A stretch of 52,649 bases of DNA, taken from NCBI GenBank assembly GCA_964557485.1, contig CAZLAN010000001.1, forward strand, positions 1 to 52,649, in the 5' to 3' direction. The stretch is from an uncultured Rhodobiaceae bacterium (GTDB lineage: Bacteria; Pseudomonadota; Alphaproteobacteria; MED-G09). Position 1 is the first letter of the stretch; the number at the start of each line of letters is the position of its first letter. Positions 3,715-46,528 of the stretch are shown in pieces. Position numbers and translations under genes: made by a program. The notes below the pieces were generated by a model. It was not told the origin of the DNA, did no database searches, and worked only from the letters and a program-made list of their open reading frames with translations.

Positions 3715-3749
3715 GGAAATCATAACAAAAAATTAAGGAACTATAAATA

Positions 3750-18314: not shown

Positions 18315-19257
18315 ATGACTGAAACTATTCACTCAAAATTACTAATTTTAGGTTCTGGGCCTGCGGGATATACTGCTGCCATTTATGCCGCAAGAGCTAT
18401 GCTTGATCCTATTCTTTTAACTGGAATAGAGCCTGGCGGTCAAATGACAATAACAACTGATGTCGAAAATTATCCTGGATTCGTAGATGTAATACAAGGT
18501 CCCTGGTTAATGGAACAAATGAAAGAACAGGCAATAAATGTTGGGACTAATATAATTTTTGATACAATTGTTAATGTTGATTTATCTAAAAAACCTTATC
18601 AATTAATTTCCGATTCAGAAAAGATATATACTTGTGATGCTCTTATAATTGCTACTGGAGCTCAAGCAAGATGGTTAAATATTGAATCGGAGGATAAATA
18701 TAAAGGGAAAGGAGATACACCAACCATGTGCCACTTGTGATGGTTTCTTTTATAAAGATAAAAAAGTAATAGTTGTAGGTGGAGGAAATACCGCTGCTGA
18801 AGAAGCTTTGTTTCTTACAAACTTTTCAAATGAGGTGAAGCTTGTTCATAGAAGAGACAATCTAAGAGCTGAAAAAATATTACAATCACGTTTAAAAGAG
18901 AATAAGAAAATAGAAATTATTTGGGATACAGAATTAATTGAAATTATTGGCGATGAAGACCCATTAAGTGTTAATGGAGCTCTTTTATTAAATAAAAAGA
19001 CCAATGAAAAACAAAAAATTGATGTAGATGGTATTTTTATTGCTATTGGACATAACCCATCATCATCAATATTTAAGAATCAATTAGATATGAATAATAG
19101 TGGATATATTGATACAAGCCCTGATTCAACTAAAACAAGCATAGATGGAATATTTGCAGCAGGTGATGTAACTGACGAAAAGTATAGGCAAGCTGTTACT
19201 GCGGCTGGATTGGGTTGCATGGCAGCATTGGAAGCTGAAAGTTATTTATCTAAATAA
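18315..19257 (+). pseudogene. trxB: Thioredoxin-disulfide reductase with its reading frame broken just upstream of the CATC redox motif
   Basis: Frame A (18315-18740) encodes the FAD domain ([19 protein letters not shown] ... [12 protein letters not shown]) and stops at 18738-18740. Frame B carries [30 protein letters not shown] ... GIFAAGDV ... AAGLGCMAALEAE through to 19257. One base too many or too few between about 18700 and 18726 joins them. Confidence 0.85.
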
Positions 19258-31028: not shown

Positions 31029-33227
31029 ATGAAATTAAGAACCTATCTTTTACTATTTGTATTAATTTTAATTGGTATTTATTTCTTTTCTTCAAAAGAA
31101 AATTTAACCAAAGATGAAATCACCCTCGTAGAAGAATCAAGAATTGAAAAAATTGAATTAGAAAAAAAAATTGCTAATATCACTCAAAAAAGAATTATTA
31201 ATGCAGATAGTGAGCCAAATGTATGGTTATCATATGGAAGAAATTATGAGGAACAAAGATTTTCTCCATTAACTCAAATAAATAAAAATAATATAAACAA
31301 TCTTGAATTAGCCTGGTCATTTGATATGAATAGCACCAGAGCGTTAGAATCCACTCCAATTGTTGATGACGGAATAATGTTCCTTACTAGTGAATGGAGT
31401 ATTATATATGCTATTGATGCAAAAACTGGAAATGAAGTTTGGTATTACGATCCTGAAGTTCCTAAAGACTGGGGAAGAAAAGCTTGCTGCGATGTAGTAA
31501 ACAGAGGAGTTGCAATTTGGAAAGGTTATGTCTATTCAGCTACACTTGATGGCAAGTTATTAAAGCTAGATGCTAGAAGTGGTGAGTTAATTTGGGAAAA
31601 AGATACTCTTATTGACCGTAATAGAGATTACACCATTACCGGTGCTCCAAGAATTGCTAATGATTTGATTTTCATAGGAAATGGTGGAGCTGAATATGGC
31701 GTAAGAGGATATGTTTCTGCTTTCGATATAAATTCTGGAGATTTAGTATGGAGATTCTATACGGTTCCTGGCGACCCATCTTTACCTTTTGAACATCCTG
31801 AAATGGAAATAGCTGCTGAGACCTGGAAAGGCGGAGAATGGTGGAAAATTGGTGGTGGTGGAACCGTTTGGAATACAATTGTATATGATCCTGAATTTGA
31901 TCAGATTTACATAGGGGTTGGAAACGGATCTCCTTGGACTAGAGTTATAAGGTCGCCTGGCGGAGGAGATAATTTATTCCTTTCTTCAATAGTTGCTCTT
32001 GATGCGAATACTGGAAAAATGAAATGGTATTACCAAACTACACCTGGTGATAATTGGGATTACACTGCTGTTCAAGATTTGATGTTAGCTGAAATGGAAG
32101 TTGATGGTGTAGTTCGTAAAGTTATTATGCAAGCGCCTAAAAATGGTTTCTTTTATGTCTTAGATAGAGAAGATGGAAAACTCTTACGGGCTCATAAATA
32201 TGCTGAAGTAAATTGGGCTACTCATGTAGATATGGATACTGGGAGACCAATTGAGAACAAGGAGAAAGATTACCTAAAAGAAAAGCAATGGATTTTACCT
32301 GGCGCTTTAGGAGGTCATAATTGGCAGGCAATGTCGTTTGATCCTAATTTAGGACTAGTATTTATCCCTACTCAAATAGCTCCAACAATTTACAAAATGA
32401 CTGAGGAATGGCAAAAAACTGGTAAAATCAAATACAAACCAAATACATGGAATACAGGTGTAGAACTAGCAAAGTACCTTGATTTAGCTCTTAATACTCC
32501 TGAGGTGCCAATTCCCACAGGCTCATTAAAAGCTTTTGATCCAATTTCAGGAGAAACAAGATGGGAAGTAAATTATCCACAGCACTGGAATGGTGGAACT
32601 CTATCAACTGAATCAGGTTTAACTTTTCAAGGGAATGGAATGGGCTTCCTAAATGCATTTGATTCTGCTTCAGGAGAAATATTATGGTCTAGAGATATTC
32701 AAACAAGCATGCTTGCACCTCCAATAACTTTTGTTATTGATGGAGAACAATATATTGCAATATTGGCTGGAACTGGTGGTGGAAATAATCATGGCGGGGA
32801 TACTCTCGGGTTTCATACTGAACATTTAGCTTCTTTAAAATATGGTAACAATGGAAGACTTCTTGCCTTTAAAATAGGGGGAAATCAGAAACTTCCGCGC
32901 TTGGATCTTATTAATAAATCCATTCCAGAACAACCACAATTGATATCAACTGAATTTCAAATAAAAAGAGGAACTGAGCTTTATGGTGAATATTGTGCGT
33001 TTTGTCATGGCACAGCTGTAAGGGCTGGTCCCGCCTTACCAGACCTAAGAATGATGAGTATTGATACTCATGAATTATTTCAAGAAATTGTATATCAAGG
33101 TATTCTCAGTGATAATGGTATGTCATCATTTTCAGATGTTCTTTCGGAAAAAGATGTTGAAAGCATTTATCACTACATTGTTAATACAGCAACAATTGAT
33201 AGAACTGTTCAATTAGAAAATAATTAA
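31029..33227 (+). CDS. Quinohaemoprotein PQQ-dependent alcohol dehydrogenase (type II ADH-like), copy 1
   Basis: Vicinal disulfide KACCDVVNRG. Propeller blocks TITGAPRIAN, GVRGYVSAF, GGGTVWN, PGDNWDYTA and APKNGFFYVLDR. C-terminal cytochrome c site CAFCHG. N-terminal signal or anchor. Confidence 0.9.
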   Translation: MKLRTYLLLFVLILIGIYFFSSKENLTKDEITLVEESRIEKIELEKKIANITQKRIINADSEPNVWLSYGRNYEEQRFSPLTQINKNNINNLELAWSFDMNSTRALESTPIVDDGIMFLTSEWSIIYAIDAKTGNEVWYYDPEVPKDWGRKACCDVVNRGVAIWKGYVYSATLDGKLLKLDARSGELIWEKDTLIDRNRDYTITGAPRIANDLIFIGNGGAEYGVRGYVSAFDINSGDLVWRFYTVPGDPSLPFEHPEMEIAAETWKGGEWWKIGGGGTVWNTIVYDPEFDQIYIGVGNGSPWTRVIRSPGGGDNLFLSSIVALDANTGKMKWYYQTTPGDNWDYTAVQDLMLAEMEVDGVVRKVIMQAPKNGFFYVLDREDGKLLRAHKYAEVNWATHVDMDTGRPIENKEKDYLKEKQWILPGALGGHNWQAMSFDPNLGLVFIPTQIAPTIYKMTEEWQKTGKIKYKPNTWNTGVELAKYLDLALNTPEVPIPTGSLKAFDPISGETRWEVNYPQHWNGGTLSTESGLTFQGNGMGFLNAFDSASGEILWSRDIQTSMLAPPITFVIDGEQYIAILAGTGGGNNHGGDTLGFHTEHLASLKYGNNGRLLAFKIGGNQKLPRLDLINKSIPEQPQLISTEFQIKRGTELYGEYCAFCHGTAVRAGPALPDLRMMSIDTHELFQEIVYQGILSDNGMSSFSDVLSEKDVESIYHYIVNTATIDRTVQLENN

Positions 33228-33244
33228 TAATTTAGGAGTTAATT

Positions 33245-35470
33245 ATGGGACACCCAGGATTAGGTAGAAAATCTGCAATATTTATAAATGTTGTTTTGTT
33301 ATTATCTATATCAATAGCTGTTTCTTATAAATTAATTCTCTTAAATGAAGAAAAAGTTATTAAAGAAATTCCAATAGAAAGTAAGGTTAAATTAATAGAT
33401 GATAAAAAATTCGGCCAAATAAACTCTAAAAGAATTATTAACGCCAATAAGGAACCTCACAATTGGCTTTCGCATGGAAGAGATTATAATGAACAACGAT
33501 ATTCACCACTTGACCAAATAAATAAGCAAACAATAAGTAAATTAGAATTGGAATGGTCTTTAGATATGGGAACTACTCGGGGTCTAGAAGCTACGCCAAT
33601 TATAGATAATGGAATAATGTTTGTTTCTAGTACTTGGAGTGTAGTTCATGCTATTGACGCAAAAACTGGTAAAGAACTTTGGGTTTATGATCCAAATGTT
33701 CCTAGAAGCTGGGCAAGAAAGGTTTGTTGTGATGTTGTAAACAGAGGTGTAGCAGTTTGGGAAGGACAAGTTTATTTTGGAACAATCGATGGACGCCTTA
33801 TTAGTCTTGATGCGGTAACAGGTGAAAAAACATGGGAAATAAATACACTAATTGATACATCAAAAGACTATACCATTACAGGGGCACCAAGAATTGCAAA
33901 TGGAAAAGTTTTTATAGGTAATGGTGGTGCTGATATGGGTGGAGTTAGAGGTTATGTTTCAGCCTATAATGTAAAAAATGGTAATCTAGAATGGAGGTTT
34001 TTCACGGTTCCTGGAGATCCATCTTTACCTTTTGAACATCCTGAAATGGAAATGGCTGCAGAAACATGGAATGGTCAATGGTGGGTTATGGGTGGCGGTG
34101 GAACTGTTTGGAATTCTATTGTTTATGATCCAGAATTCAATCAAGTTTATTTGGGAACAGGTAATGGATCTCCATGGAATCAGCAAATTCGTTCTCCTGG
34201 AGGTGGTGATAATTTATTCTTATCATCAATCGTTGCTCTCAATGCTGATACAGGAAGAATGAATTGGTATTATCAAACTACCCCTATGGAAAGATGGGAT
34301 TACACTGCAACACAAGACATAATGTTAACTGAATTAGAGGTTGATGGCGCTGAAAGAAAAGTTTTAATGCAAGCGCCTAAAAATGGATTCTTTTATGTCC
34401 TGGATAGAAAAACGGGTGAACTTCTTAGGGCAAATAATTATGTAGAAACTAATTGGGCAACACATGTTGATTTAAAAACAGGGAGACCTGTCCTTAATAC
34501 AAATAAGGATTATTATAAAAAAGCAGTTTGGATACTTCCAGGGACATATGGCGGTCATGGCTGGCAAGCAATGTCTTATGATCCTAAGCAAAAACTAGTT
34601 TTCATTCCCACAATGGAAATAGCTGCTATCCATAAAGTTAAAAAGTCATTCAGCAAAACAGGTCTTTTTAAAATGCAGCCTCAAACCGTAAATACTGGAA
34701 CAGAATTTAATCTTTTTGATACTGTTCCTGATATGGCTGATGGTGAAAGTATACCTCCAATAACAGGAGAATTAAAGGCTTTTGACCCTATTACAGGAAA
34801 GACAAAGTGGTCAGTTAAGCATGAACAATTTTGGAATGGCGGACCTCTAACTACTGCAGGAAGTCTTGTTTTTCAGGGAAATGGTTCAGGTTTTTTTGAA
34901 GCATATAATGTAGAAAATGGCGAACGAGTTTGGTCTAAAAATGTAAGAATTGGAATAATGGCTCCACCTGTTACTTTTATGATCGATGGAGAACAATATA
35001 TTAGTATTCTAGCTGGAGATGGTGGAGCAAGTAATTTTCTTGGTGATAATTTTGGTGAATGGAAAGGAAAACTTGCGTCTATTAAATATGGGAATTTTGG
35101 AAAACTTTTAACTTTTAAATTAAATGGAAAATCTAAAATTGAGGAAATACCTGAAAAAAACTTAAATATACCCGAGCAACCTATAATTAATACAAGCTTA
35201 GAAAATATAAAAGCCGGGCAAGACATTTACGCAAATTATTGTGCTATATGCCATGGAAGTGGAGTTCATGGTAAAACAATTTCAGATTTAAGATATATGA
35301 GCTCTAATACTCACGAATATTTTAATGAAATAGTCTTAAACGGAATGCTTGAAGAAAACGGAATGAAAGGTTTTTCTGATCTTCTATCTGATAAAAATGT
35401 TTTCGAGGTTTATTCTTATATTGTAGATGTGGCCACTAAAGAAAGATTAGCTCAACAAAAATCTAATTAG
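33245..35470 (+). CDS. Quinohaemoprotein PQQ-dependent alcohol dehydrogenase, copy 2 (tandem paralog)
   Basis: Same blocks as copy 1 (KVCCDVVNRG, TITGAPRIAN, GGGTVWN, APKNGFFYVLDR, CAICHG), but PMERWDYTA in place of PGDNWDYTA. Confidence 0.9.
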   Translation: MGHPGLGRKSAIFINVVLLLSISIAVSYKLILLNEEKVIKEIPIESKVKLIDDKKFGQINSKRIINANKEPHNWLSHGRDYNEQRYSPLDQINKQTISKLELEWSLDMGTTRGLEATPIIDNGIMFVSSTWSVVHAIDAKTGKELWVYDPNVPRSWARKVCCDVVNRGVAVWEGQVYFGTIDGRLISLDAVTGEKTWEINTLIDTSKDYTITGAPRIANGKVFIGNGGADMGGVRGYVSAYNVKNGNLEWRFFTVPGDPSLPFEHPEMEMAAETWNGQWWVMGGGGTVWNSIVYDPEFNQVYLGTGNGSPWNQQIRSPGGGDNLFLSSIVALNADTGRMNWYYQTTPMERWDYTATQDIMLTELEVDGAERKVLMQAPKNGFFYVLDRKTGELLRANNYVETNWATHVDLKTGRPVLNTNKDYYKKAVWILPGTYGGHGWQAMSYDPKQKLVFIPTMEIAAIHKVKKSFSKTGLFKMQPQTVNTGTEFNLFDTVPDMADGESIPPITGELKAFDPITGKTKWSVKHEQFWNGGPLTTAGSLVFQGNGSGFFEAYNVENGERVWSKNVRIGIMAPPVTFMIDGEQYISILAGDGGASNFLGDNFGEWKGKLASIKYGNFGKLLTFKLNGKSKIEEIPEKNLNIPEQPIINTSLENIKAGQDIYANYCAICHGSGVHGKTISDLRYMSSNTHEYFNEIVLNGMLEENGMKGFSDLLSDKNVFEVYSYIVDVATKERLAQQKSN

Positions 35471-36017
35471 TTTTTTTAGGAATATTTGCTTTTGGAGCCT
35501 CAAATAATTCTAAATACCATTCATCATCAACAGAATTAAATTTCTCAGATTCTTCTGTTTCATCTGAAGTATCTTTTTCTTCTCTATTTTCTATTCCCTC
35601 GTAAGAATCCTTTTCTATCATAAAAACATCTCCACGCTTTGCTTCAATTAGGCCTTCACAAAATATCCGATCATAAGGTATGCTGACTATTTCAGGTATA
35701 TTATCGAAAACACCACCTTGTTTCTCTCTATAAAAAACTAGATAAGATTTACCAGGTATTTTTCTTATCTTATCTGGCTCTAAACAATCATGGGCAAGAT
35801 ATTTAAATTTTATTCCTTTAATTTCTTCAAATTTATTTATTCTTGGCTTTCCTAAAATTTCTTCTATCAAATGATATGAAAATATAAATAGGAAAAAACC
35901 TAAAAAAACTAATATGACCTTAAATACTAAAGAAAAGCGTGTATAAAAAACAAATAACAATAGAATTGAAAACGATAAAGCAAATAGAATTGCTAAATTA
36001 ATTGAATCTAAATTCAT
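35463..36017 (-). CDS. Hypothetical membrane protein (184 aa), third gene of the MotA/ExbB-like operon
   Basis: Two N-terminal hydrophobic helices, a globular region of about 90 aa, and an acidic tail (EEKDTSDETEESEKFNSVDDE). ATGA overlap with the upstream gene. No recognisable family. Confidence 0.6.
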   Translation of the reverse strand: MNLDSINLAILFALSFSILLLFVFYTRFSLVFKVILVFLGFFLFIFSYHLIEEILGKPRINKFEEIKGIKFKYLAHDCLEPDKIRKIPGKSYLVFYREKQGGVFDNIPEIVSIPYDRIFCEGLIEAKRGDVFMIEKDSYEGIENREEKDTSDETEESEKFNSVDDEWYLELFEAPKANIPKKTN

Positions 36018-36628
36018 TGTTTTAAAATTCCACCAATTAATGATTTTTGAATAAAACTTAAATCTTGAATACTGCCCTTCTCATCTAAGAAAAACCTAAC
36101 AGCAGTAAGTTCATGCCCAGTCTCAGTCAAAAAGTGATTGCCAAAATAAATAGTCTTTACTTGAGGATTTATCTTTTCAACTTTTACCTTGGTTTTTAAT
36201 GGAACAACGAAATTAGCTTTATAATGCAATAAATTAACAACATATTCACCTGCCATAAAACCTCTAATAGTTATTATTTCTTGGTTAGCAGGATTTTCAA
36301 TATTTACCCCATCTATTGTTAAACGATCAGCTAAGGTTCCTCTATCATCTCTATCAAGGTGCATTAAACCATCTGAGGTGTTCTGAAAAAAAACAATATT
36401 ACCTTTGGGATCTTCGACAACTAAATCTACATCATCAGGATGATAATCTTCCCATTCTACGGAAATAATAAATTCTGCTTTAGATTGGATATTTGCATCC
36501 TCTAAAGGTTTTTGAATTAGAGCAAATGAAATAAAAAACATAAAAGCAAAACCCAATAGAGCATTGAACAGAAGGTCAGTAAAAGCATCTCCACTATTAT
36601 CTTCTATAAAGATTAATTTATCTTTCAA
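36014..36628 (-). CDS. Hypothetical single-pass membrane protein (204 aa) with a MotB/ExbD-like Asp-containing TM helix and an unrecognised periplasmic domain
   Basis: The N-terminus GDAFTDLLFNALLGFAFMFFISF places an Asp at the cytoplasmic end of the only TM helix. The remainder reads as beta-rich (SVEWEDYHPDDVDLVVEDPKGNIVFFQN, LDRDDRG). Overlaps the channel gene by 11 nt. Confidence 0.6.
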   Translation of the reverse strand: MKDKLIFIEDNSGDAFTDLLFNALLGFAFMFFISFALIQKPLEDANIQSKAEFIISVEWEDYHPDDVDLVVEDPKGNIVFFQNTSDGLMHLDRDDRGTLADRLTIDGVNIENPANQEIITIRGFMAGEYVVNLLHYKANFVVPLKTKVKVEKINPQVKTIYFGNHFLTETGHELTAVRFFLDEKGSIQDLSFIQKSLIGGILKQ

Positions 36629-37253
36629 TATTTTCTTCCCTTAAAAAAGTAATTTCATTAATTAAGGTAACAACATTAGAGGAAGTAATTTGAAATTGAA
36701 GACGAATTAAAATACTAGAAACTAGTCCTGTTAAAGTAGTAAACAAAGCTACTGCCATACCAGAACTCATTGAAGATAAAGCTTCCTTCAACTCCTCGGG
36801 GCCCGTATTATTTAATTCAGATATAGGCTGAAGCATTAAAATAAAGCCAATAACAGTTCCTAAAAGACCTAATTTTAATGATACATCTGCAGCAACCCAT
36901 CCAAAACTAAGTTTTTTTGCATACTCAGATTCAAAAACCCTAATAATAACATCCTTATCTTCGTCTTTATCTAGATCTCTTAAATATCTTCCAATGGATA
37001 AATTTGAAGACGAATCATTTTCATTTCCAATTAAGGATTTATCTAAATATATAATTCTTGATAAATAGACCCAATAAATTGTAGTCACTATCCAAAGAAT
37101 AATAATTGCCTTAGAGATATGACTCTTATCACCTTGAAGAACTATCTGCATTAAACCTTGGTCATTTAATATCCAAAATCCAAATAAGATAATAACTAAA
37201 AGTAAAAGCGATCTAAGAAGGCCATTTGATTTAGGTTGCTCAATTTTTGTCAT
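36618..37253 (-). CDS. MotA/TolQ/ExbB-family proton-channel protein (211 aa)
   Basis: Family signature LKLGLLGTVIGFILM and GMAVALFTTLTGLVSSILI in the last two TM helices. There is also an N-terminal TM helix. Confidence 0.8.
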   Translation of the reverse strand: MTKIEQPKSNGLLRSLLLLVIILFGFWILNDQGLMQIVLQGDKSHISKAIIILWIVTTIYWVYLSRIIYLDKSLIGNENDSSSNLSIGRYLRDLDKDEDKDVIIRVFESEYAKKLSFGWVAADVSLKLGLLGTVIGFILMLQPISELNNTGPEELKEALSSMSSGMAVALFTTLTGLVSSILIRLQFQITSSNVVTLINEITFLREENIER

Positions 37254-37360
37254 TGCATCTTGCCTTTTCTGTATATTTGTAGCTATTTATATAGCTTATT
37301 GAATAAAATATTACGAATTTTGTCTAAAATTGATATTATAATGCAATACAGGATTTAAAA

Positions 37361-38689
37361 ATGGAAGAAAAGACTCTTTTAGAAAACGGAACAATTATTG
37401 ACGGTACTGGTTCAAAACCAAAAAAGGAATCAATTATTTTTGGTAATGGTTGTATTTTAGCAACAGGAAAAGATGCTGATAAAATTGCCAAATCAGATAA
37501 TGTTAATAAAATAGATGCATCTGGCAAAACAGTAATGCCAGGCCTTATTGATTCTCATATACATGTTACTTTTGATGAACCTTCTTCAAATGATGAATTA
37601 TTCTTTCATCGCAGAGAATCCTTGTCGGCAATAATTGCAGCATACAATGCAAGGAAAGTCTTATTAGCAGGTGTAACAAGTTTTTGTGATCCAGATTGTC
37701 TACATGATATTGGAGTTGATTTAAGAGATGCTATCAAAAGTGGTTATGTACAAGGTCCAAGGATGTCAGTTGGCGGAAATGCCCTACTAACTTCCGTTGG
37801 AGGAACTGCAGGAAGATTAATTCCAGATGAAGGTCTAAGAGGTTATGCAAAAATTGTTCAAAGTAAAGATGAAATAATAACTGAAGTTAGGCGACAAATT
37901 AAAAATGGTGTCGATTGGATTAAAGTACATGTTACTGGCCTTATACCAAACCAAAAAGAAGCAGGAGAAATTTCGGTTTGGTCATATGAAGAATTAAAAT
38001 TAGTTTGCGATTTAGCTCATGATCTTGGAATTCCTGTAGTTGGTCATGTAAGAAATGCAAAAGGAGTTAAAGATAGTATAAAAGCAGGAATGGACATGAT
38101 TTTACATGCTACATGGATGGATAAAGAAGCTTTGGATCTTGTTTGTGAACATAAAACTCCAATAGTACCCACTTTAACATTTCAAGCAAATCTAGCAGAA
38201 TTTGGTGAATCGGTTGGAGCTTCGAAGGATTATCGTGAAATATTTAAAAAAGAAATTACTGATAATGTTTCAAATTATAAAAAACTTCATAAAGCAGGTG
38301 TTCCACTATTATGCGGAACGGAGAGCGGATTTTCAATAACCCCTTATGGTGAATGGCATCATAGAGAATTAGAAGTTTTCGTAAATGAAATTGGGATGAC
38401 TAATCTTGAGGCTATCACATGTGCAACTAAAAATGCATCAAAATCAATAAAAATGGAAGGTAAATTAGGAACTTTAGAAAAAGATATGCTTGCAGATATC
38501 CTTATTATCGATGGAGATCCATTAAAAGATATTACTATTTTAGGAGATAAATCTAAAATATCACATATATTTATCGATGGAAAAGAAGTTAACCAAGAAG
38601 TGCCTTATGGTCCAGTGACTTATGCTCAAGGGTGGAGATTATCACCTTTTTCAGATGGAATACTGACTCAAGAACTAACTAAAAAGTAA
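37361..38689 (+). CDS. Metal-dependent amidohydrolase-family protein
   Basis: GKTVMPGLIDSHIHV (HxH metal site), a later VGHV, and a C-terminal ADILIIDGDPLKDI block. Confidence 0.8.
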   Translation: MEEKTLLENGTIIDGTGSKPKKESIIFGNGCILATGKDADKIAKSDNVNKIDASGKTVMPGLIDSHIHVTFDEPSSNDELFFHRRESLSAIIAAYNARKVLLAGVTSFCDPDCLHDIGVDLRDAIKSGYVQGPRMSVGGNALLTSVGGTAGRLIPDEGLRGYAKIVQSKDEIITEVRRQIKNGVDWIKVHVTGLIPNQKEAGEISVWSYEELKLVCDLAHDLGIPVVGHVRNAKGVKDSIKAGMDMILHATWMDKEALDLVCEHKTPIVPTLTFQANLAEFGESVGASKDYREIFKKEITDNVSNYKKLHKAGVPLLCGTESGFSITPYGEWHHRELEVFVNEIGMTNLEAITCATKNASKSIKMEGKLGTLEKDMLADILIIDGDPLKDITILGDKSKISHIFIDGKEVNQEVPYGPVTYAQGWRLSPFSDGILTQELTKK

Positions 38690-38704
38690 GTTATAATTAA
38701 AGAT

Positions 38705-39898
38705 ATGAAAGAATTTAATTTTACAAAATATGAAGAAGCTATAAAGATTTATAGAGATAACAACCTTATGCAAGCCTTATATGATGAAGGTGAAATTATA
38801 ATGGATCAGGTTTTAGTCTGTCTCCATGGTGAAGAGCATAAAAAAAGAAGAAAAGTAGAAAACAAAATTTTTTCTAGAGAAACCTTTCGTCTATATGAAA
38901 CTGAAATATACCCTAAGACTATAAAAGAAACGATAAAACCATTTATTGATTCTGGTAAAATGGACTTAGTTGATTTTGGCTTTAGAGTTCTTCTAAATTT
39001 AACAGCTGACTTTTCAGGAGTTGATAGACCTCTTAAATCACAAGAGGAGACAGAAACTTTAATAAGATTACTTAAAACCTTTGCTTCAGGTGCTACCCTA
39101 GCTCATTCAACTCGTGATCGTGAAGAGGTAAAATCTGAAATAAAATTAGCTTTAAAGGAATTTGAAGAAAGATTTTTAGGGCCCTCAATTGAAAGACGTA
39201 AAGAAATTATAAAAAAATCGGAAGAAGATAATCTACCAAAAGATATTTTAACAGCGCTTTTACTAAATCAAGACAAGCTTAAATTACCACATGATGTTTT
39301 AATGCGAGAAATTGCTTTTTACTTATTAGCTGGAGCTCAAACTTCAATTCATTCTTTAGTGCATACTTTCCACGAAATTATGACTTGGATTGAAAAAAAC
39401 CCTGATCAAAAAAATAGAATAAACGATCCAATTTTTATACAAAAATGTGTTCATGAAAGCACGAGATTACATCCTTCGAGTCCTGTGGCTTGGAGAAAAC
39501 CTGTCTGTCCAGTAAATCTTCCTAATAATGAACAAGCTGTCGAGGGTGATAAAGTTATTATAGATTTATATAATTGTAATCGTGATAAAGAAATTTTTGG
39601 CGATGATGCAAAAGAATTTAATCCAGAAAGAAAAGCTCCAAGCGGTCAAAATGTTTATGGATTATCTTTTGGACTAGGTATGCATTCGTGTATTGGAAGA
39701 AATTTGGCGGCAGGAGTTGTTCCTAAAAAAGATACCGATCCTGATAACCATCATTACGGAACTGTTGCATTAATAATAAGAAAATTATTTGAAAATAATG
39801 CCCTTCCTAACCCTAATGATCCTCCTAAAATGGATGAAAAGACTAAACGACCAAACTGGGGATATTATCCTATAATTCTAAATTCAGATAAGGTCTAA
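38705..39898 (+). CDS. Cytochrome P450 (397 aa)
   Basis: Cys-ligand loop FGLGMHSCIGRNL, ExxR in HESTRLHP, and I-helix AGAQTS. Confidence 0.88.
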   Translation: MKEFNFTKYEEAIKIYRDNNLMQALYDEGEIIMDQVLVCLHGEEHKKRRKVENKIFSRETFRLYETEIYPKTIKETIKPFIDSGKMDLVDFGFRVLLNLTADFSGVDRPLKSQEETETLIRLLKTFASGATLAHSTRDREEVKSEIKLALKEFEERFLGPSIERRKEIIKKSEEDNLPKDILTALLLNQDKLKLPHDVLMREIAFYLLAGAQTSIHSLVHTFHEIMTWIEKNPDQKNRINDPIFIQKCVHESTRLHPSSPVAWRKPVCPVNLPNNEQAVEGDKVIIDLYNCNRDKEIFGDDAKEFNPERKAPSGQNVYGLSFGLGMHSCIGRNLAAGVVPKKDTDPDNHHYGTVALIIRKLFENNALPNPNDPPKMDEKTKRPNWGYYPIILNSDKV

Positions 39899-39902
39899 AT
39901 TC

Positions 39903-41111
39903 TTGAAACAATACGAAACATCAAATTATGACACTATAAAAAAAGCGTTAGTCAATAGGGATCTTAAGCAAGCTTTATATGATAAAGGAAAAGTAATAAT
40001 GGATGGTGTTCTTTTGACACTTCATGGAGAAGAACACCACAAAAGAAGAAAACTTGAACACAAAGTTTTTCAAAGAGATTTCTTTAGGTATTATGAGCAT
40101 GAACTTTTTCCTAAAACACTTGATGAAACTCTCAAACCATTTATTAAAAAGAAATCAGCTGATTTAATTGATTTTGGATACAGAATAACAATGAATTTGA
40201 CCGCTGATTTTGCTGGAATTGATAGACTAGAAAAAACTCCAGCGGAAACTGAAAAATTACTATCTCTTGTCAAGACATTTAGCCAAGGAGCAACATTAGT
40301 TCATTCGAAAAGACCTCACGAAGAAGTTAATAAAGAAGTTATAGATGCTCTAGAAATTTTTGAAAAAGACTTTTTAATTCCATCAAAAATGAGAAGAGAA
40401 AAATTAATAAAGAAATTTAATAATAATGAAGTAAATGAAAATGAATTACCTAGAGATGTATTAACAGTTCTTATAAGGAATGTTGATAATATAGAATTAA
40501 ATGATGAACTTATTAAAAGGGAAATAGCGTTTTATCTTCAGGCAGGTTCGCACAGCACAGCAAACTCAATGACACATGCAATCCATGAAATCTTAAAGTG
40601 GATTGATAATGACGAAGGTAAACTTTTAAAGATTAATAGTGATCCATTATTTCTACAAAAATGTGTTCATGAAAGCATGAGATTGCATCCTGCAAGTCCA
40701 GTTGCATGGAGAAAATCAACTTGCGCTATTAATCTTGAAAAGGAGATAAACCTTAAGAAAGATGATTTGCTAATTATGGATCTACATACAGCAAATAGGA
40801 GTAAAGAAATTTTTGGTAAAGATGCCAATAGCTTTAATCCTTTCAGAAAATTAGATTCTCAGCAAAATTTATGGGGTTTAACTTTTGGAATTGGTCTTCA
40901 CTTATGCTTTGGTAGAGACTTAGACGGAGGTTTAATTCCTGAAAAAAATACAAACCCAGATACACACCAATATGGAATTGTTACATTGTTGATAAAAAAG
41001 CTTTTTGAGCATAAAGTTCAATTAGATCCTAATAATCTACCAAAGGAAGATGAAAAGACAGAACGCCCAAATTGGGGCAAATACCCAATAATTTTTGGAG
41101 AAAGAAAATGA
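39903..41111 (+). CDS. Cytochrome P450 (402 aa), tandem paralog
   Basis: FGIGLHLCFGRDL, HESMRLHP, and AGSHST. It is collinear with the preceding P450 from the first residues (MKQYETSNYD vs MKEFNFTKYE), which supports the TTG start at 39903. Confidence 0.85.
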   Translation: MKQYETSNYDTIKKALVNRDLKQALYDKGKVIMDGVLLTLHGEEHHKRRKLEHKVFQRDFFRYYEHELFPKTLDETLKPFIKKKSADLIDFGYRITMNLTADFAGIDRLEKTPAETEKLLSLVKTFSQGATLVHSKRPHEEVNKEVIDALEIFEKDFLIPSKMRREKLIKKFNNNEVNENELPRDVLTVLIRNVDNIELNDELIKREIAFYLQAGSHSTANSMTHAIHEILKWIDNDEGKLLKINSDPLFLQKCVHESMRLHPASPVAWRKSTCAINLEKEINLKKDDLLIMDLHTANRSKEIFGKDANSFNPFRKLDSQQNLWGLTFGIGLHLCFGRDLDGGLIPEKNTNPDTHQYGIVTLLIKKLFEHKVQLDPNNLPKEDEKTERPNWGKYPIIFGERK

Positions 41112-41848
41112 AGAATGCATTAGTTACTGGATCAAGTAATGGAATTGGTCTTGAAATTGCAAAAAAACTTAGCAAAAACAATTATCATGTTGGAATGATA
41201 GATATAGATGAAGATAACCTCATTAAGGAAAGCAAAGAAATAGAAAATAGTATGCCTATAGTGGGTGATGTAACTGATGAAGAATCAATAAAAAATGCTG
41301 TAAGTAAATATGGAAAAACACCGGATTTATTAGTTAACAATGCTGGAATAGTTTTATTTGGAGGGCTAGAAGAACAAAGCATACAAGATTTCAAAAAAAG
41401 TGTTGATATAAGTTTAATAGGTTCATATTTAGTTTCAAGAATACTAATAAATCTTATGATAAAGAATAAATCTGGATGTATAATAAATATGTCTTCAATA
41501 AATGGGATTCACCCTGGGGCAGGAACTGGTGGATATCCTGCAGCTAAAGCTGGAATTGTTTCTCTTACCCAACAGATGGCTATTGAGTGGGGTCCGTATG
41601 GAATTAGGGTAAATTCTATTGCTCCAGGTTTTATAGATGCTGGTATGTCAAAACCAATCTATGCAGAACCTAAAGTTAGAGAATTAAGAGGGAATGCTGT
41701 ACCATCTAAAAGATTAGGTGAGGCAGAAGATATCGCTAATGCAGTAATTTTCTTAGCCTCCGAAAATGCTTCTTATATAAATGGGCATAATCTTGTTGTT
41801 GATGGTGGCGTCATAAACAGTGTATTAGCCCAACTTCCAAGAGAATAA
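41108..41848 (+). CDS. SDR-family oxidoreductase
   Basis: TGSSNGIGLEIA, NNAG, and YPAAKAG. The start is set at the ATG at 41108 (ATGA overlap with the P450 stop) rather than the ORF-track 41072. Confidence 0.85.
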   Translation: MKNALVTGSSNGIGLEIAKKLSKNNYHVGMIDIDEDNLIKESKEIENSMPIVGDVTDEESIKNAVSKYGKTPDLLVNNAGIVLFGGLEEQSIQDFKKSVDISLIGSYLVSRILINLMIKNKSGCIINMSSINGIHPGAGTGGYPAAKAGIVSLTQQMAIEWGPYGIRVNSIAPGFIDAGMSKPIYAEPKVRELRGNAVPSKRLGEAEDIANAVIFLASENASYINGHNLVVDGGVINSVLAQLPRE

Positions 41849-42534
41849 TGAAAAAAAACTTAATAATTTCTGGTGGAATTTTTCATCCATTTGAGGATAC
41901 TTCAAAATCTCTTTCAAAAATAATGTCTGATTTAGATTATCAATCCGAAATCACCATGGATATAGAAGAAGCATTTAGGAATCTTGAAGATTATGATCTT
42001 TTAACATTAAATGCTCTTAGATGGAGAATGCTAAATCATGAAAAATATCTTCCATATATTGATGAATGGCAATTTAGTTTATCTGAAGAAGGTCAAAAAA
42101 ATTTATATAATTATATGATGAGTGGAGGATTATTAATTGCTTTTCATACATCCTCTATATGCTTTGATGATTGGAAAGATTATTCAAAAATTTTAGGAGG
42201 TAAATGGGTTTGGGACCAAACTTTTCATCCTCCATATGGTCCTGTAGAAATATCTCCTATATTAGATCACGAAATATCTAATAAATTAAAACCTTTTTAT
42301 CTTAATGATGAAATTTACCATAACCTTGAATTAGAGGCATCATCTAAACCTTTTTTAACAGGAAAGACTAAAGAAACCGATGAAGAACATATAATTGCCT
42401 GGACATATAAAATTGGAAAAGGAAAGGTAGTTTATAATTCATTGGGGCACGATTCTAAATCTCTAGAAAGTGATGAATTTTCTGAAATAATTAGAAGATC
42501 AATTCATTGGATTGAAGGAAAAAATAATGAATGA
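41848..42534 (+). CDS. ThuA-like (trehalose-utilisation, class-I glutamine-amidotransferase-like fold) domain protein
   Basis: The pattern GGLLIAFHTS ... WKDYSKILGGKW ... HEI ... DEIYH ... GKVVYNSLGHD follows the ThuA domain consensus. The start shares one base with the preceding stop (TAATG). Confidence 0.6.
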   Translation: MKKNLIISGGIFHPFEDTSKSLSKIMSDLDYQSEITMDIEEAFRNLEDYDLLTLNALRWRMLNHEKYLPYIDEWQFSLSEEGQKNLYNYMMSGGLLIAFHTSSICFDDWKDYSKILGGKWVWDQTFHPPYGPVEISPILDHEISNKLKPFYLNDEIYHNLELEASSKPFLTGKTKETDEEHIIAWTYKIGKGKVVYNSLGHDSKSLESDEFSEIIRRSIHWIEGKNNE

Positions 42535-43288
42535 GATAAAAAATAAATCAATACTAATTACTGGAGGAGCTACAGGAATAGGTTTTGCAATGGCAAAAAG
42601 GTATTCCGAAAAAGGTGCTTTAGTTACAATTTGTGGTAGGAGAAAAGAAAAAATTGAAAAAGCGTTAGAATTATTAAATGATAATGTAAAAGGCTTAATA
42701 GCTGATGTAACAGTAGATTCTGATAGAAATAAAATTATTGAAATCACAATTAATCATGGAAGAAAAATTGATATCTTAATTAATAATGCAGGAAATATGT
42801 ATCGGGGTAATATTGATGAGCTAGAAGAGGAAAAACTTATAGAAATCTTTAACTCAAATGTAATTTCAGGGATGATGCTACTAGGAAAAGCTAAAAAACA
42901 TCTAAAAAAATCTGAAGGAGTCAATATTTTCATTGGATCAGTACATAACAGAAGAGCATTTCCAGGTGCATCACCATACGCAGCAACAAAAGGTGCACTT
43001 GAGACACTAACTAAAGTATTAGCAGCTGAATTAGGAAAAGATAAAATAAGAGTTAATTGCGTTGTTCCAGGTGCTGTTTTTACTGAAATTAATCAAAGAG
43101 CAGGATTATTTGATGATAAAACAGCAAAAAAAAGGTTGGATTCAATGTCCAAGATCCATGCATTAGGAAGAATAGGAGAGCCAGAAGAGATTGCTGAAGC
43201 AGTTGAATATTTGATTTCTTCTAAATGGACCACGGGCGCAATTCTAGATGTGGATGGTGGTTTAGGATTAGGTTTAACTGAAGGTTAA
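42527..43288 (+). CDS. SDR-family oxidoreductase
   Basis: TGGATGIGFAMA, NNAG, and YAATKGA. The ATG at 42527 overlaps the ThuA-like stop by 8 nt. The ORF track used a TTG at 42512. Confidence 0.85.
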   Translation: MNEIKNKSILITGGATGIGFAMAKRYSEKGALVTICGRRKEKIEKALELLNDNVKGLIADVTVDSDRNKIIEITINHGRKIDILINNAGNMYRGNIDELEEEKLIEIFNSNVISGMMLLGKAKKHLKKSEGVNIFIGSVHNRRAFPGASPYAATKGALETLTKVLAAELGKDKIRVNCVVPGAVFTEINQRAGLFDDKTAKKRLDSMSKIHALGRIGEPEEIAEAVEYLISSKWTTGAILDVDGGLGLGLTEG

Positions 43289-44080
43289 TTAGATAGGTAA
43301 ACTTGAAACCCCTCCATCGACAGCAATTGATTGACCAGTAATATAACTGGCTCTTTCTGAAGATAAAAATGCTACTAATGCTGCTAACTCTTCCGCTTCA
43401 CCAACTCTTTTAGCAGGTATTCCGCTGGCTATAGATTCTATAATATCTTCTTTAGAACTTTTTGAAGACTCTGCTTGATTATTAATTAAATCATTAACTC
43501 TTTCTGTATGCGTAAACCCAGGACAAACATTATTTATCAAAACATTGTAAGAAGCTACTTGATTAGACAAAGTTTTAGACCAACCATGAATAGACATGCG
43601 AACACCATTAGAAAGTATAAGATTGTCAATAGGTTGTTTAGCAGAAACAGAACTTATATTAACAATTCTTCCCCATTTATTTTCTTTCATGGATGGTAGC
43701 ACTTTTCTAGTTACTCTAACCGCAGATAAAAAGGTTGATTCAAAAGCCTTTATCCAATCTTCATCAGATATATCTTCAAAAAATCCAGCCTTAGGACCTC
43801 CAGTATTATTAACCAAAATCTCTATAGCCCCATAATTATTTTGAACTGATTCAATAAGATTAGAAATTTCATTATCATTATCTAAATTTGTTGGAAAACT
43901 TATAACTTCAGCACCAGTTAAATTTATAATTTCTTTAGCAGTACCTTCAATTTTCTTTTCATCACGTGAACAAATAGCTAGTTTAACTCCTTCTTTAGCT
44001 AACTCTATAGCTGAAGCTTTTCCTAAACCCTGACTAGCTGCTGTTACAAGTGCAACTTTACCCTTTAACCCTAGATCCAT
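43289..44080 (-). CDS. SDR-family oxidoreductase
   Basis: The N-terminal glycine motif is degenerate (TAASQGLGKASA). NNTGG is present, but the usual Y-x-x-x-K appears changed, and a C-terminal SDR block remains (ASYITGQSIAVDGG). Its stop abuts the convergent SDR with no gap. Confidence 0.8.
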   Translation of the reverse strand: MDLGLKGKVALVTAASQGLGKASAIELAKEGVKLAICSRDEKKIEGTAKEIINLTGAEVISFPTNLDNDNEISNLIESVQNNYGAIEILVNNTGGPKAGFFEDISDEDWIKAFESTFLSAVRVTRKVLPSMKENKWGRIVNISSVSAKQPIDNLILSNGVRMSIHGWSKTLSNQVASYNVLINNVCPGFTHTERVNDLINNQAESSKSSKEDIIESIASGIPAKRVGEAEELAALVAFLSSERASYITGQSIAVDGGVSSLPI

Positions 44081-44176
44081 TTTATCCCCAAAAAAAAATT
44101 ACTATGTTATTATATAATGCATCATTGATAATTAATGCAGTAAATTTATAATTTTAATTAATTTATAAGGTTTAAA

Positions 44177-46528
44177 ATGTCTGATAAAGGTCTTGGTCAA
44201 TCTGTAAAAAGAAAAGAGGATTTCCGCTTCATAACAGGGAAAGGTAATTATACCGACGATATAGTTCTTCCCCATCAGTTATATGCCTATTTTTTAAGAT
44301 CCCCAGTGGCTCACGCTAAATTAAAATCTATTGATATTGAAGAAGCGAAAGAAAGTAATGGAGTTCAAGCAGTTTATACTGGAAAAGATACTGATGCTTT
44401 TTTACCTTGCGGATGGGAAACACCTACAAGGGAAGGTACACCCCCAATGGCTGAACCTCCTTGGCCATTATTTGCTCAAGAAAAGATAAGATTTGTAGGA
44501 GAAATAATTGCTGTCGTAATAGCTGAAACAATAAACCAAGCTAAAGATGCTTGTGAATTAATTAAGTTTGATTATGAAGAATTGGATGCAGTTGTTTCAC
44601 CAGAAAAAGCATTAAAAAATGGCGCGGAATTGATTTGGAAAGATATACCTAATAATCAGTGTTTTGACTGGGAATTAGGAGAAAAAGAAAATACAGATAA
44701 CGCTTTTAAAAATGCTAAATACTCGGCATCAATTGAAATTCTTAATAATAGATTGGTACCAAATGCTATGGAGCCAAGATCTTATATTGGATATTATGAT
44801 AAAGGAAAAGATGAATATATCCTTTATACAACAACACAACTTCCCCATATAATTAGAATGCTTGTTTGTGGTGTTCTTGGGTTAGAAGAACAGAAAGTAA
44901 GAGTTATTTCACCAGATGTTGGAGGTGGTTTTGGATCAAAGGCTTTTCATTATGCTGAGGAGTCAATTGTTACATGGGCATCTAAAAAATTAGAAAAACC
45001 TATTAAATGGACCTCAGAAAGAAGTGAGGCCTTTATTAGTGATAGACATGGAAGAGATCATATAACTAAAGCTGAAGTAGCAATAGATAAGGATGGTAAT
45101 TTTCTTGCTATGAGAGTTAATACGATTGCAGCTCTAGGCGGTTATTTATCTGGATCTGGACCTGCAATACCAACTTTCTTCTATGGACCGTTAATACCCG
45201 GACCATATAAAACACCTAATTTTTATTGTAATGTTAGAGGAGTTTTTACTAATACAGTTCCTGTTGATGCTTATAGAGGCGCTGGAAGGCCTGAAGCAAC
45301 ATATGTTACTGAAAGATTAGTGGAGGCAGCAGCCGAAATTACAGGGATAGACTCTATAGAATTACGAAGAAAAAACTTTATACAAGCTGATCAATTTCCT
45401 TACAGCTCACCAGGTGCATTAACTTATGATAGTGGGGATTATGAAGCGACACTCAATTCAGCACTTAAAAGCATAGATTACCATAACTTTAACAAAAGAA
45501 AAAATGAATCAATAGAGAACGGAAAACTAAGAGGCTTAGGAATATCTTGCTATATAGAAGCATGTGGAGTTGCACCTTCTAAACTAACTTTAGAAGCTGG
45601 TGGAAGGGGTGGTTATTATGAGTCATCAACAGTAAGAATTAACCCTACAGGTTCAGTTACAGTTTTTACTGGATCACATTCGCATGGGCAAGGTCATGAA
45701 ACAGTTTTCGCACAATTGGTTCACGAAAAACTTGGAGTACCGTTTGAATCAGTAGATGTTGTCCATGGAGATACTGGGAGAGTACCTTTTGGTGTTGGAA
45801 CGGTAGGTTCTCGTTCCTTAGCTGTAGGTGGTCCAGCTCTAATGAGATCCTTAGATAAAATAATAGAAAAAGGAAAGAAGATTGCCGCACATTTATTAGA
45901 CTCAACTGATAAAGAAATTATATTTGCAAATGGTGAATTTTCGGTATCAAATACCAATAAATTTATAACTTTTACTGATGTTGTTGGTGCTGCATATGTT
46001 CCAGGAAACTATCCAATAGAAACTTTAGAACCAGGTCTTGAAGAAACTTCCTTTTATGATCCTCCAAACCTAACTTATCCAGCAGGAGCTCATATTTGTG
46101 AAATTGAAATTGATCCAGATACAGGAAATATTGAAATAGTAGATTATTGTGTTTCAGATGATTTTGGAATTGTTATGAATCCAATGATAGTAGAAGGACA
46201 AGTTCATGGAGGGGTTGCCCAAGGCATTGGTCAGGCACTTTATGAAAATTGTATTTATGAAGAAAATACTGCCCAATTAATTAATGGTTCTTTTATGGAC
46301 TATGTTATGCCAAGGGCAGACAATGTTCCACATATGGTTGTTAAAACAGAAGTTACGCCATGCGCCCATGGGTTAGGTGTAAAAGGATGCGGAGAAGCTG
46401 GGGCAATAGCTGCTCCGCCAGCTGTAGTACACGCAATTCTCGATGCCCTTAAAGAAAAAGGAATTAAAAATTTTGATATGCCAGCAACACCTAATAAAGT
46501 CTGGAATGCAATAAATAATAAAGTTTAA
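44177..46528 (+). CDS. Molybdopterin-binding large subunit of the xanthine dehydrogenase / CoxL family (form-II CoxL-like)
   Basis: GQSVKRKEDFRFITGKG N-terminus, GGGFGSK, the active-site loop AYRGAGRPEA, and a C-terminal GVKGCGEAG. No small (2Fe-2S) or medium (FAD) subunit gene is adjacent. Confidence 0.88.
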   Translation: MSDKGLGQSVKRKEDFRFITGKGNYTDDIVLPHQLYAYFLRSPVAHAKLKSIDIEEAKESNGVQAVYTGKDTDAFLPCGWETPTREGTPPMAEPPWPLFAQEKIRFVGEIIAVVIAETINQAKDACELIKFDYEELDAVVSPEKALKNGAELIWKDIPNNQCFDWELGEKENTDNAFKNAKYSASIEILNNRLVPNAMEPRSYIGYYDKGKDEYILYTTTQLPHIIRMLVCGVLGLEEQKVRVISPDVGGGFGSKAFHYAEESIVTWASKKLEKPIKWTSERSEAFISDRHGRDHITKAEVAIDKDGNFLAMRVNTIAALGGYLSGSGPAIPTFFYGPLIPGPYKTPNFYCNVRGVFTNTVPVDAYRGAGRPEATYVTERLVEAAAEITGIDSIELRRKNFIQADQFPYSSPGALTYDSGDYEATLNSALKSIDYHNFNKRKNESIENGKLRGLGISCYIEACGVAPSKLTLEAGGRGGYYESSTVRINPTGSVTVFTGSHSHGQGHETVFAQLVHEKLGVPFESVDVVHGDTGRVPFGVGTVGSRSLAVGGPALMRSLDKIIEKGKKIAAHLLDSTDKEIIFANGEFSVSNTNKFITFTDVVGAAYVPGNYPIETLEPGLEETSFYDPPNLTYPAGAHICEIEIDPDTGNIEIVDYCVSDDFGIVMNPMIVEGQVHGGVAQGIGQALYENCIYEENTAQLINGSFMDYVMPRADNVPHMVVKTEVTPCAHGLGVKGCGEAGAIAAPPAVVHAILDALKEKGIKNFDMPATPNKVWNAINNKV

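Follow-up and report, generated by a model that had tools for sequence, protein, structure and literature searches.

The lumA-Y operon of Nocardioides simplex, which serves the catabolism of lumichrome (riboflavin), a poorly soluble heterocycle, combines P450 methyl oxidation with two dehydrogenases and three ring-opening hydrolases, and includes a xanthine-oxidase-type enzyme and a Rieske dioxygenase; its cytochrome P450 (P450), LumU, is a self-sufficient, fused three-domain enzyme (PMC12746152, Sinha et al. 2025). This operon is the closest characterised system, in logic, to a seven-gene cassette found in a window (the whole stretch of DNA that was analysed) of 52,649 nt. The window corresponds to the forward strand of contig CAZLAN010000001.1 of GCA_964557485.1, a metagenome-assembled genome (MAG) from an uncultured Rhodobiaceae bacterium. 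This MAG belongs to the PS1/OCS116 clade of alphaproteobacteria (1.26 Mb, 159 contigs, 83% complete). The cassette includes six co-directional genes, which encode an amidohydrolase (AH1), two P450s (P450-A and P450-B), a short-chain dehydrogenase (SDR1), a ThuA-like protein and a second short-chain dehydrogenase (SDR2), and one convergent gene encoding a third (SDR3). It is probably a cytoplasmic catabolic operon for a small, likely cyclic, amide-bearing compound taken up from water (rough probability 0.65).

When compared by description, the lum operon and the present locus with its accessory genes have in common P450s, alcohol/aldehyde dehydrogenases, hydrolases, a molybdenum hydroxylase and a Rieske enzyme. 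Unlike in the lum operon, genes for a thiamine pyrophosphate (TPP) decarboxylase, a catechol dioxygenase and a pyrone hydrolase are absent here, and the gene order is different. The P450cam system of Pseudomonas putida (CamA, CamB, CamD) follows a like logic: the P450 hydroxylates, a dehydrogenase makes the ketone, and ring opening follows. The reductase and the ferredoxin of the source genome are closest to putidaredoxin reductase and putidaredoxin-type ferredoxins. Unlike in the cam system, the redox partners are unlinked to the cassette, the two paralogous P450s belong to another family and the dehydrogenases are SDRs; AH1 and the ThuA-like protein have no cam counterpart.

Among solved structures, the best match of the cassette P450s in both sequence and fold is CypX/CYP134A1 (pulcherriminic acid synthase, cyclo-L-Leu-L-Leu oxidase; 7ow9, 3nc3), which also has a non-canonical I-helix motif. 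Unlike CypX, the cassette P450 lacks about 36 N-terminal residues and carries a 16-residue loop in the L helix; identity is about 21%. The cyclodipeptide synthase that belongs to the CYP134 context is absent from the window and from the Pfam-annotated neighbours of seven related loci (L021-L027). The ThuA-like protein agrees in Pfam family (PF06283) and in fold with ThuA of thuEFGKAB and with 4e5v and 1t0b, and is likewise paired with dehydrogenases. Unlike in the thu operon, neither ThuB (Gfo/Idh/MocA) nor the thuEFGK transporter is found in the window or in the cassette of the Pfam-annotated loci (a Gfo/Idh/MocA neighbour is found in one locus only, that of Geodermatophilus, L105). The protein is about 15% identical to solved ThuA-like proteins, and its partners are SDRs and P450s. 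AH1 has the fold and the HxH-Lys-His-His ligands of COG1228 enzymes (the Arg/Lys carboxypeptidases Cc2672 and Sgx9359b, the prolidases Sgx9260b/c, and ochratoxinase); unlike these enzymes, it has an invariant Glu for the strand-8 Asp.

Conservation and organisation of the cassette

Relatives of the cassette were gathered by contig look-ups and by a scan of species-representative genomes (41-95% identity), and six-frame open reading frames (ORFs) were labelled with the proteins of the window. This comparison of neighbourhoods, which an earlier annotation made from the DNA letters and their ORFs (hereafter the first-pass annotation) had proposed, yielded 80 non-duplicate loci. The order AH1, P450, P450, SDR1, ThuA, SDR2 is colinear in 30 of them (14 PS1-family loci, 16 loci of other lineages) and spans Alpha-, Beta- and Gammaproteobacteria; many of the 50 remaining loci are cut by contig ends. 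Because six genes share their order in so many loci, within the PS1 family and outside it, the cassette is, as judged from this comparison, a real, conserved and old unit, far beyond chance.

The hosts are PS1 genomes, Steroidobacteraceae, Rhodoferax and other lake Betaproteobacteria, Sphingomonadales, Pseudomonadales (including Halieaceae and HTCC2089-type lineages) and some Actinomycetota. In the family to which the window belongs, P450-A and P450-B are both present in all eight genomes of 90% completeness or more; counted over genomes of any completeness, both are found in 20 of 25. P450 clusters had been called atypical for very AT-rich, streamlined genomes. This is not the case for this clade: about 10 P450 genes are found in the source genome, and each near-complete genome of the family (0.9-1.6 Mb) gives 9-13 Pfam P450 matches.

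Several variants of the cassette are found. The minimal one, P450-A and SDR1 beside luciferase-like monooxygenases, occurs in nine loci (L048-L054, L058, L091); two loci (L066, L068) have a single P450; three rearranged ones (L069, L070, L087) keep the SDR1-ThuA-SDR2 block intact. SDR1 is the most constant partner of P450-A and adjoins a P450 in 49 of the 62 non-PS1 loci. In nearly every locus carrying ThuA, this gene lies between SDR1 and SDR2. An SDR3 ortholog adjoins the cassette in PS1 loci and in 11 others. The full extended cluster is carried by a cultured bacterium, Novosphingobium sp. THN1, on megaplasmid pTHN (NZ_CP028348.1, 199367-218578; L108), where it extends over roughly 199.9-215.4 kb, with the six-gene core at roughly 206.7-213.1 kb. 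It includes CoxS, CoxL, the six-gene core and convergent genes for a limonene-epoxide-hydrolase-like (LEH) protein, SDR3 and an Amidohydro_2 protein (AH2), together with minus-strand genes for an MFS transporter and an Old Yellow Enzyme (OYE); a 217-aa protein of the cluster has no Pfam match.

In the window, the packing of six co-directional genes with a convergent SDR3, as first described, is found alike in the ORF listing, in Pfam and by reading the sequence. AH1 and P450-A are separated by 15 nt, and P450-A and P450-B by 4 nt. P450-B and SDR1 overlap by 4 nt (ATGA), SDR1 and the ThuA-like gene by 1 nt (TAATG), and the ThuA-like gene and SDR2 by 8 nt (ATGAATGA). The stops of SDR2 and SDR3 converge back-to-back with zero gap.

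The P450 family and its electron supply

The size of the P450 family was estimated by a profile search of 1.84 billion representative proteins, with clusters at 50% identity. The family comprises 581 clusters at E <= 1e-30, versus 15,593 at E <= 0.001. Among the best 150 matches, obvious fragments removed, nearly all are 385-430 aa long, with a match beginning within the first 5-30 residues. P450-A and P450-B are 52% identical over their full length; the motifs on which their paralogy had been proposed (QKCVHES-x-RLHP-x-SPVAWRK and RPNWG-x-YPII) are present in both. In a maximum-likelihood tree of 135 family members, A-type and B-type clades are found, each across several proteobacterial classes; the duplication is therefore older than the spread of the cassette. 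The solved structures closest to P450-A are CYP134A1/CypX orthologues (E 3e-15 with phmmer, TM-score 0.76 with Foldseek). By best matches and phylogeny, the means of assignment that had been advised, the cassette P450s form a new, sharply bounded and uncharacterised CYP family, as far as sequence comparison goes. In CYP nomenclature, members of the same family are more than 40% identical. Membership of CYP134 (TIGR04538) was considered and rejected: the scores are 73 and 65 bits versus a cutoff of 500, at about 21% identity.

The P450s look functional, because the Cys loop, the ExxR and an LHG-x-x-H-x-x-RR stretch are invariant or nearly so and the model of a family P450 confidently adopts the P450 fold (AlphaFold2, pLDDT 92.7). 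In Pfam, they score 71 and 59 bits against a cutoff of 22.8. The Cys loops follow FxxGxxxCxG, and F322, G325, H327, C329 and G331 vary little or not at all among the 135 sequences. The ExxR of the K helix is ESTR in one P450 and ESMR in the other, with a nearly invariant E251 and an invariant R254. The His and Arg residues of the LHG-x-x-H-x-x-RR stretch, which is taken to be the C helix, are invariant.

No solved P450 is more than 21% identical to the family, which is marked by four features. An acid-alcohol pair, (A/G)Gx(D/E)T(T/S), is typical of the I helix in the P450 superfamily, without being obligatory. In all 135 members, a residue other than Asp or Glu stands where the acid would be (A-type, AGA[Q/H/F]TS; B-type, AGSHST); the Thr or Ser is kept. 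At the N-terminus, all family members have the same Met start, and residue 6 of the query aligns to residue 42 of CypX; about 36 residues are therefore missing, which we read as the A helix and the first beta-1 strand. After the Cys loop, the insertion reported by the first-pass annotation is found in each P450. In the AlphaFold2 model, a short helix (332-336), a loop (337-352) and a further helix (353-363) stand where P450s normally have one continuous L helix. The 16-residue loop is gap-free in 128 of the 135 members; within it, G337, H349 and G352 hardly vary. The Pfam matches of all cassette P450s end at position 417 of the 462 profile positions; those of other P450s from the same genomes end at 428-461.

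The cluster had been described as having no redox partner. This description stands for the operon and for the window, where no match to Fer2, Fer4_15 or flavodoxin is found and where the only Pyr_redox_2 match of the contig is the trxB region (18336-19206). It does not stand for the genome: a search for ferredoxin and reductase genes, such as had been recommended, identified a pair on contig C86. This pair consists of a 405-aa reductase (2637-3854; 1e-92 to putidaredoxin reductase) and, directly after it, a 106-aa 2Fe-2S ferredoxin (3917-4237; 3e-25 to putidaredoxin), the latter also close to terpredoxin and adrenodoxin. It is the only candidate class-I redox pair of the genome; no flavodoxin and no Fer4_15 ferredoxin was found in the 83%-complete assembly. 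The genome thus encodes the FAD reductase and the small ferredoxin that a class-I system requires, and electron transfer from them to the cassette P450s is predicted.

In relatives, redox genes are found closer to the P450s. A 2Fe-2S ferredoxin gene lies directly after SDR2 in three loci (L093, L096, L101), a reductase-like gene adjoins SDR3-P450B-AH1 in Streptosporangium (L100), and a 3Fe-4S ferredoxin ORF adjoins P450-A in an Acidimicrobiales MAG (L106). In one database protein of 463 aa (P0138), a family P450 is naturally fused to a Fer4_15 domain at the C-terminus. Given these linked and fused relatives, a partner-independent mechanism is therefore unlikely, and the best-supported reading is that the P450s receive electrons as ordinary class-I enzymes do but have an unusual architecture. 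In another protein (P0194), a Gfo/Idh/MocA C-terminal domain is joined to the N-terminal part of a P450; this is either a true fusion or an artefact of gene calling.

Proposed function and alternatives

Within the amidohydrolase superfamily, AH1 falls into the COG1228 group and is carboxypeptidase/prolidase-like. Its best PDB match is 2qs8, 'Xaa-Pro dipeptidase' (1.5e-49); other PDB relatives include the Arg carboxypeptidase Cc2672, prolidases, ochratoxinase and molinate hydrolase. The predicted metal ligands H66, H68, K188, H229 and H249 are invariant, and the Glu in place of the strand-8 Asp (E321, codon 38321-38323) is invariant in 56 of 56 orthologs. AH1 scores 225 bits against the NCBIfam Xaa-Pro dipeptidase equivalog NF051886, whose cutoff is 500. 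Searched against the PDB, SDR1 and SDR2 gave generic matches only (FabG-like, glucose-dehydrogenase-like), with no informative close relatives; the matches of SDR1 are generic FabG-like proteins, and the closest entries for SDR2 are tropinone reductases and alcohol dehydrogenases. The ThuA-like protein scores 76 bits in Pfam versus a cutoff of 33.4, and its AlphaFold2 model has a pLDDT of 96.4. A fold search with Foldseek returned only structural-genomics ThuA-like proteins of unknown function (4e5v, TM-score 0.80). Across 40 orthologs, H13, H100, H127, H201 and D154-E155 are invariant and C105 nearly so; these residues could form a metal or catalytic site.

In the best-supported reading, the catabolic operon acts in three stages: the P450s would hydroxylate, the SDRs would dehydrogenate and AH1 would hydrolyse. 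Each of the two paralogous class-I P450s would hydroxylate one position of the substrate, with electrons supplied in trans by the single putidaredoxin-reductase/putidaredoxin-type pair of the genome. SDR1, SDR2 and SDR3 would oxidise the new hydroxyls to carbonyls, and the ThuA-like protein would act on or with the keto intermediate. AH1, as a putative binuclear-metal, carboxypeptidase-like enzyme with an invariant Glu for the strand-8 Asp, would then cleave an amide or lactam bond. The product would be processed further by an ACMSD-type decarboxylase/hydratase, an LEH-like protein and a CoxL-type molybdoenzyme; the ACMSD-type and LEH-like genes are found beside the cassette in most other lineages and elsewhere in the source genome. 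We infer the order of the steps, the catabolic direction and all that is said of the substrate. The catabolic route suggested by the first-pass annotation remains the best reading, and the flanks of the cassette in other lineages carry genes for TonB-dependent receptors, an MFS transporter and MarR. The same annotation could name no matching pathway, and none was found here: no NCBIfam equivalog is reached above cutoff by any of the seven proteins, and neither NCBIfam nor the literature yielded a characterised operon with the same gene order. In the literature searched on P450s of PS1/OCS116/Parvibaculales, on ThuA/ThuB and on THN1, no description of the cluster was found; papers on pinoresinol and on microcystin in THN1 mention P450 in passing only.

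The class of the substrate can be given only tentatively. An alicyclic or terpenoid-derived compound is possible, with LEH-like, OYE, Baeyer-Villiger monooxygenase (BVMO) and luciferase-like monooxygenase genes among the accessory genes that point to it. A methylated aromatic or N-heterocyclic compound, to which ACMSD-type, CoxL, Rieske and MarR genes point, is slightly less probable; an N-acyl amino acid or peptide-like compound is doubtful, and other classes account for the rest. Several observations weigh against the catabolic reading. The accessory genes point in two chemical directions, alicyclic and aromatic/heterocyclic. No transporter or regulator gene is found beside the cassette in PS1 genomes. 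A housekeeping or biosynthetic role would likewise be compatible with a cassette that is core in a streamlined genome. Because the I helix lacks its acid and the L helix is broken on the proximal side, there is some room for non-standard P450 chemistry, and the SDR and ThuA assignments carry no information on the substrate.

Four other explanations have to be weighed. The cassette could be a second, non-homologous route that degrades a methylated flat N-heterocycle such as lumichrome, a breakdown product of vitamin B2, which is unlikely. The P450s would oxidise aryl methyls, the SDRs and a CoxL-type enzyme would take the alcohol to the acid, an ACMSD-type enzyme would decarboxylate, and AH1 would open the pyrimidine-dione ring. 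This would be the logic of the lum operon of Nocardioides simplex (PMC12746152); a substrate bearing two methyl groups would suit the presence of two P450 paralogs, an ACMSD/IDCase-type decarboxylase is what the most frequent accessory gene encodes, CoxL recurs as a neighbour, and the AH2 gene of the source genome adjoins a Rieske oxygenase gene and a second Amidohydro_1 gene. However, the analogy is one of logic only, drawn from the description of that operon: LumU is a self-sufficient three-domain P450, the TPP decarboxylase and catechol dioxygenase genes have no equivalent here, gene order and composition differ, and the LEH-like, OYE, BVMO and luciferase-like neighbours better suit alicyclic substrates. 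A ThuA-centred operon that degrades a glycoside or cyclitol via a keto intermediate, with SDRs replacing ThuB and the P450s acting on the aglycone, is quite unlikely. ThuAB forms 3-ketotrehalose. Pfam membership and fold of ThuA are confirmed, ThuA is flanked by two dehydrogenases in nearly every locus that carries it, the ThuA gene of Geodermatophilus adjoins a Gfo/Idh/MocA oxidoreductase gene, and in one database protein a P450 is joined to a Gfo/Idh/MocA C-terminal domain. These points are set against the absence of ThuB, sugar ABC transporter, glycoside hydrolase and sugar kinase from the cassette and its recurrent flanks, and against a minimal conserved core, P450-A and SDR1, that does without ThuA; moreover, the function of ThuA itself is, to our knowledge, not known. 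This explanation corresponds to the sugar-conjugated substrate that had been suggested at first, which is not supported: the idea draws on the name ThuA only, and no ThuB or sugar transporter accompanies the cassette.

A biosynthetic cassette that tailors one of the cell's own metabolites, such as a signal or pigment of diketopiperazine-like or lipid-derived type, is very unlikely. The closest characterised P450 is indeed a biosynthetic cyclodipeptide oxidase, and 'cyclodipeptide synthase-associated P450' is the NCBIfam model that fits best; the cassette also belongs to the core of a streamlined lineage, and no transporter or regulator gene is adjacent in PS1. Identity to CYP134 is nonetheless as low as about 21%, the NCBIfam score is 73 for a cutoff of 500, and no gene for a cyclodipeptide synthase (CDPS), nonribosomal peptide synthetase (NRPS), polyketide synthase (PKS) or terpene synthase is found beside the cassette in the lineages examined. 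The neighbours elsewhere are of uptake or catabolic types (TonB receptor, MFS, MarR, ACMSD-type, meta-cleavage-type VOC). Least probable of all would be P450s that work without ferredoxin, as peroxygenases, as isomerases or by direct uptake of reducing equivalents. Such a mechanism would explain the absence of the I-helix acid from every member of the family, the interruption of the L helix, on the face that binds the partner, in nearly all of them, the early end of their Pfam matches and the lack of a partner within the operon. Against it stand the ferredoxin and reductase genes within or beside the cassette of five relatives, the natural P450-ferredoxin fusion, and the retained Thr or Ser of the acid-alcohol pair; the classical pair of the source genome, for its part, must also serve about eight other P450s.

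It is a long shot that the cassette is the main aquatic route destroying one ubiquitous light- or cell-derived molecule, with P450s that couple electron and proton delivery in a new way. The best candidate would then be a lumichrome-like methylated flat N-heterocycle, or alternatively a carotenoid-derived norisoprenoid, and the remodelled proximal face and acid-less I helix would reflect the new coupling. If this were true, PS1/OCS116 would gain a dedicated role in marine vitamin or pigment turnover.

The catabolic operon preferred here would be a variation on a familiar kind of operon, in which catabolism is based on P450s; at its centre is a P450 branch not described before. Bacteria of the PS1/OCS116 clade are common surface-ocean bacterioplankton. 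Their genomes, of about 1.0-1.6 Mb, still keep about ten P450 genes and the seven-gene unit in every near-complete genome examined. This retention, together with the spread to lake Betaproteobacteria, Halieaceae, Steroidobacteraceae and sphingomonads, suggests that the substrate is widespread in dissolved organic matter. The cassette is thus a lead towards an unassigned step of dissolved-organic-matter turnover and towards an unstudied P450 family, and the question can be approached by experiment in a cultured carrier, Novosphingobium sp. THN1.

Features of the window and accessory genes

Table 1. Genes of the cassette, P450 motifs and adjacent features (positions are those of the window).
Feature	Positions	Strand	Basis
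Putative promoter-like element: TTACGA, 17 nt, TATTAT with TG just upstream, TATAAT overlapping	37311-37342	+	alignment
AH1, Amidohydro_1	37361-38689	+	Pfam 119 bits
P450-A, 397 aa	38705-39898	+	Pfam p450 71 bits
P450-A, I helix AGAQTS	39329-39346	+	sequence
P450-A, Cys loop FGLGMHSCIG	39668-39697	+	sequence
P450-A, L-helix insertion GVVPKKDTDPDNHHYG	39713-39760	+	sequence
P450-B, 402 aa, TTG start	39903-41111	+	Pfam p450 59 bits
P450-B, I helix AGSHST	40542-40559	+	sequence
P450-B, Cys loop FGIGLHLCFG	40884-40913	+	sequence
P450-B, insertion GLIPEKNTNPDTHQYG	40929-40976	+	sequence
SDR1, classical short-chain dehydrogenase, 246 aa	41108-41848	+	Pfam adh_short_C2 191 bits
ThuA-like protein, 228 aa, class-I glutamine-amidotransferase-like fold	41848-42534	+	Pfam ThuA PF06283 76 bits
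SDR2, classical short-chain dehydrogenase, 253 aa	42527-43288	+	Pfam adh_short_C2 160 bits
SDR3, convergent short-chain dehydrogenase, 263 aa	43289-44080	-	Pfam
CoxL-like molybdenum hydroxylase large subunit, beyond the cassette	44177-46528	+	orthologs flank the cassette elsewhere

The cassette includes no regulator gene. The 107-nt region upstream of AH1 holds a promoter-like element, located about 20 nt before the AGG ribosome-binding site of AH1. Alignment of the regions upstream of 16 PS1-family loci shows two conserved blocks, T(C/T)GCGAAT and ATTATAA; the -35-like and -10-like blocks of the element, a putative promoter, are conserved across PS1 genera. It came from the alignment only; in a promoter/terminator consensus scan, counts were not above those of shuffled sequence. 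A similar stretch, TATATAATGCA, is found in the SDR3-CoxL intergenic region (44081-44176), together with an inverted repeat (TGCAT...ATGCA). A regulatory signal common to this region and to the region upstream of AH1 is possible.

Accessory genes were identified by clustering the flanking ORFs of the 62 non-PS1 loci. The commonest is AH2 (33 loci), followed by genes for LEH/SnoaL-like proteins (15), a Glyoxalase_4 protein (14) and CoxL (10). The flanks in other lineages also carry genes for MFS transporters, MarR and, in Gammaproteobacteria, TonB-dependent receptors; those of Steroidobacteraceae carry BVMO and esterase genes. The typing of the TonB receptors is uninformative, because only generic, siderophore-type subfamily matches below cutoff were obtained. 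No equivalog-level assignment was obtained for the luciferase-like and Rieske neighbours, and no named pathway was recognised in the actinobacterial contexts of Streptosporangium and Geodermatophilus. None of the annotated neighbourhoods of the cassette includes an NRPS, PKS, terpene synthase or CDPS gene.

AH2 is closest to ACMSD, LigW, gamma-resorcylate decarboxylase, uracil-5-carboxylate decarboxylase and LigY. In the source genome, its ortholog (49.5% identity) is found on contig C95 (48-4216), in a row that also has genes for an enoyl-CoA hydratase, the alpha subunit of a Rieske oxygenase (448 aa), a small protein of 116 aa and a second, COG1228-like Amidohydro_1 protein, the last cut by the contig end. 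This row of genes may be a relocated remainder of the pathway. The LEH-like gene is found on contig C145.

The CoxL-like gene that follows the cassette in the window is probably functionally associated with it, because orthologs (49-54% identity) flank the cassette in unrelated lineages, THN1 among them. Contig C49 (2024-5485) encodes CoxG-like, CoxS (152 aa), CoxM (266 aa), XdhC (two ORFs) and MobA/MocA-like proteins. CoxL is absent from this row, which probably provides the CoxL-like protein of the window with its small, FAD and maturation partners.

Genes for pyrroloquinoline quinone (PQQ) quinohaemoprotein dehydrogenases are found in the window upstream of the cassette (31029-37253), and such genes also lie near the cassette outside PS1 (L024/L025, L026/L027, L094); this neighbourhood may not be accidental. 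Elsewhere in the source genome, contig C15 (1-15868) is a dense oxidative island that includes genes for a flavin monooxygenase, several SDRs, a Rieske-like protein, a P450 (453 aa) and an acyl-CoA synthetase. A luciferase-like monooxygenase encoded on this contig is 66% identical to the one found beside the minimal P450-A/SDR1 variant in Pseudomonadales.

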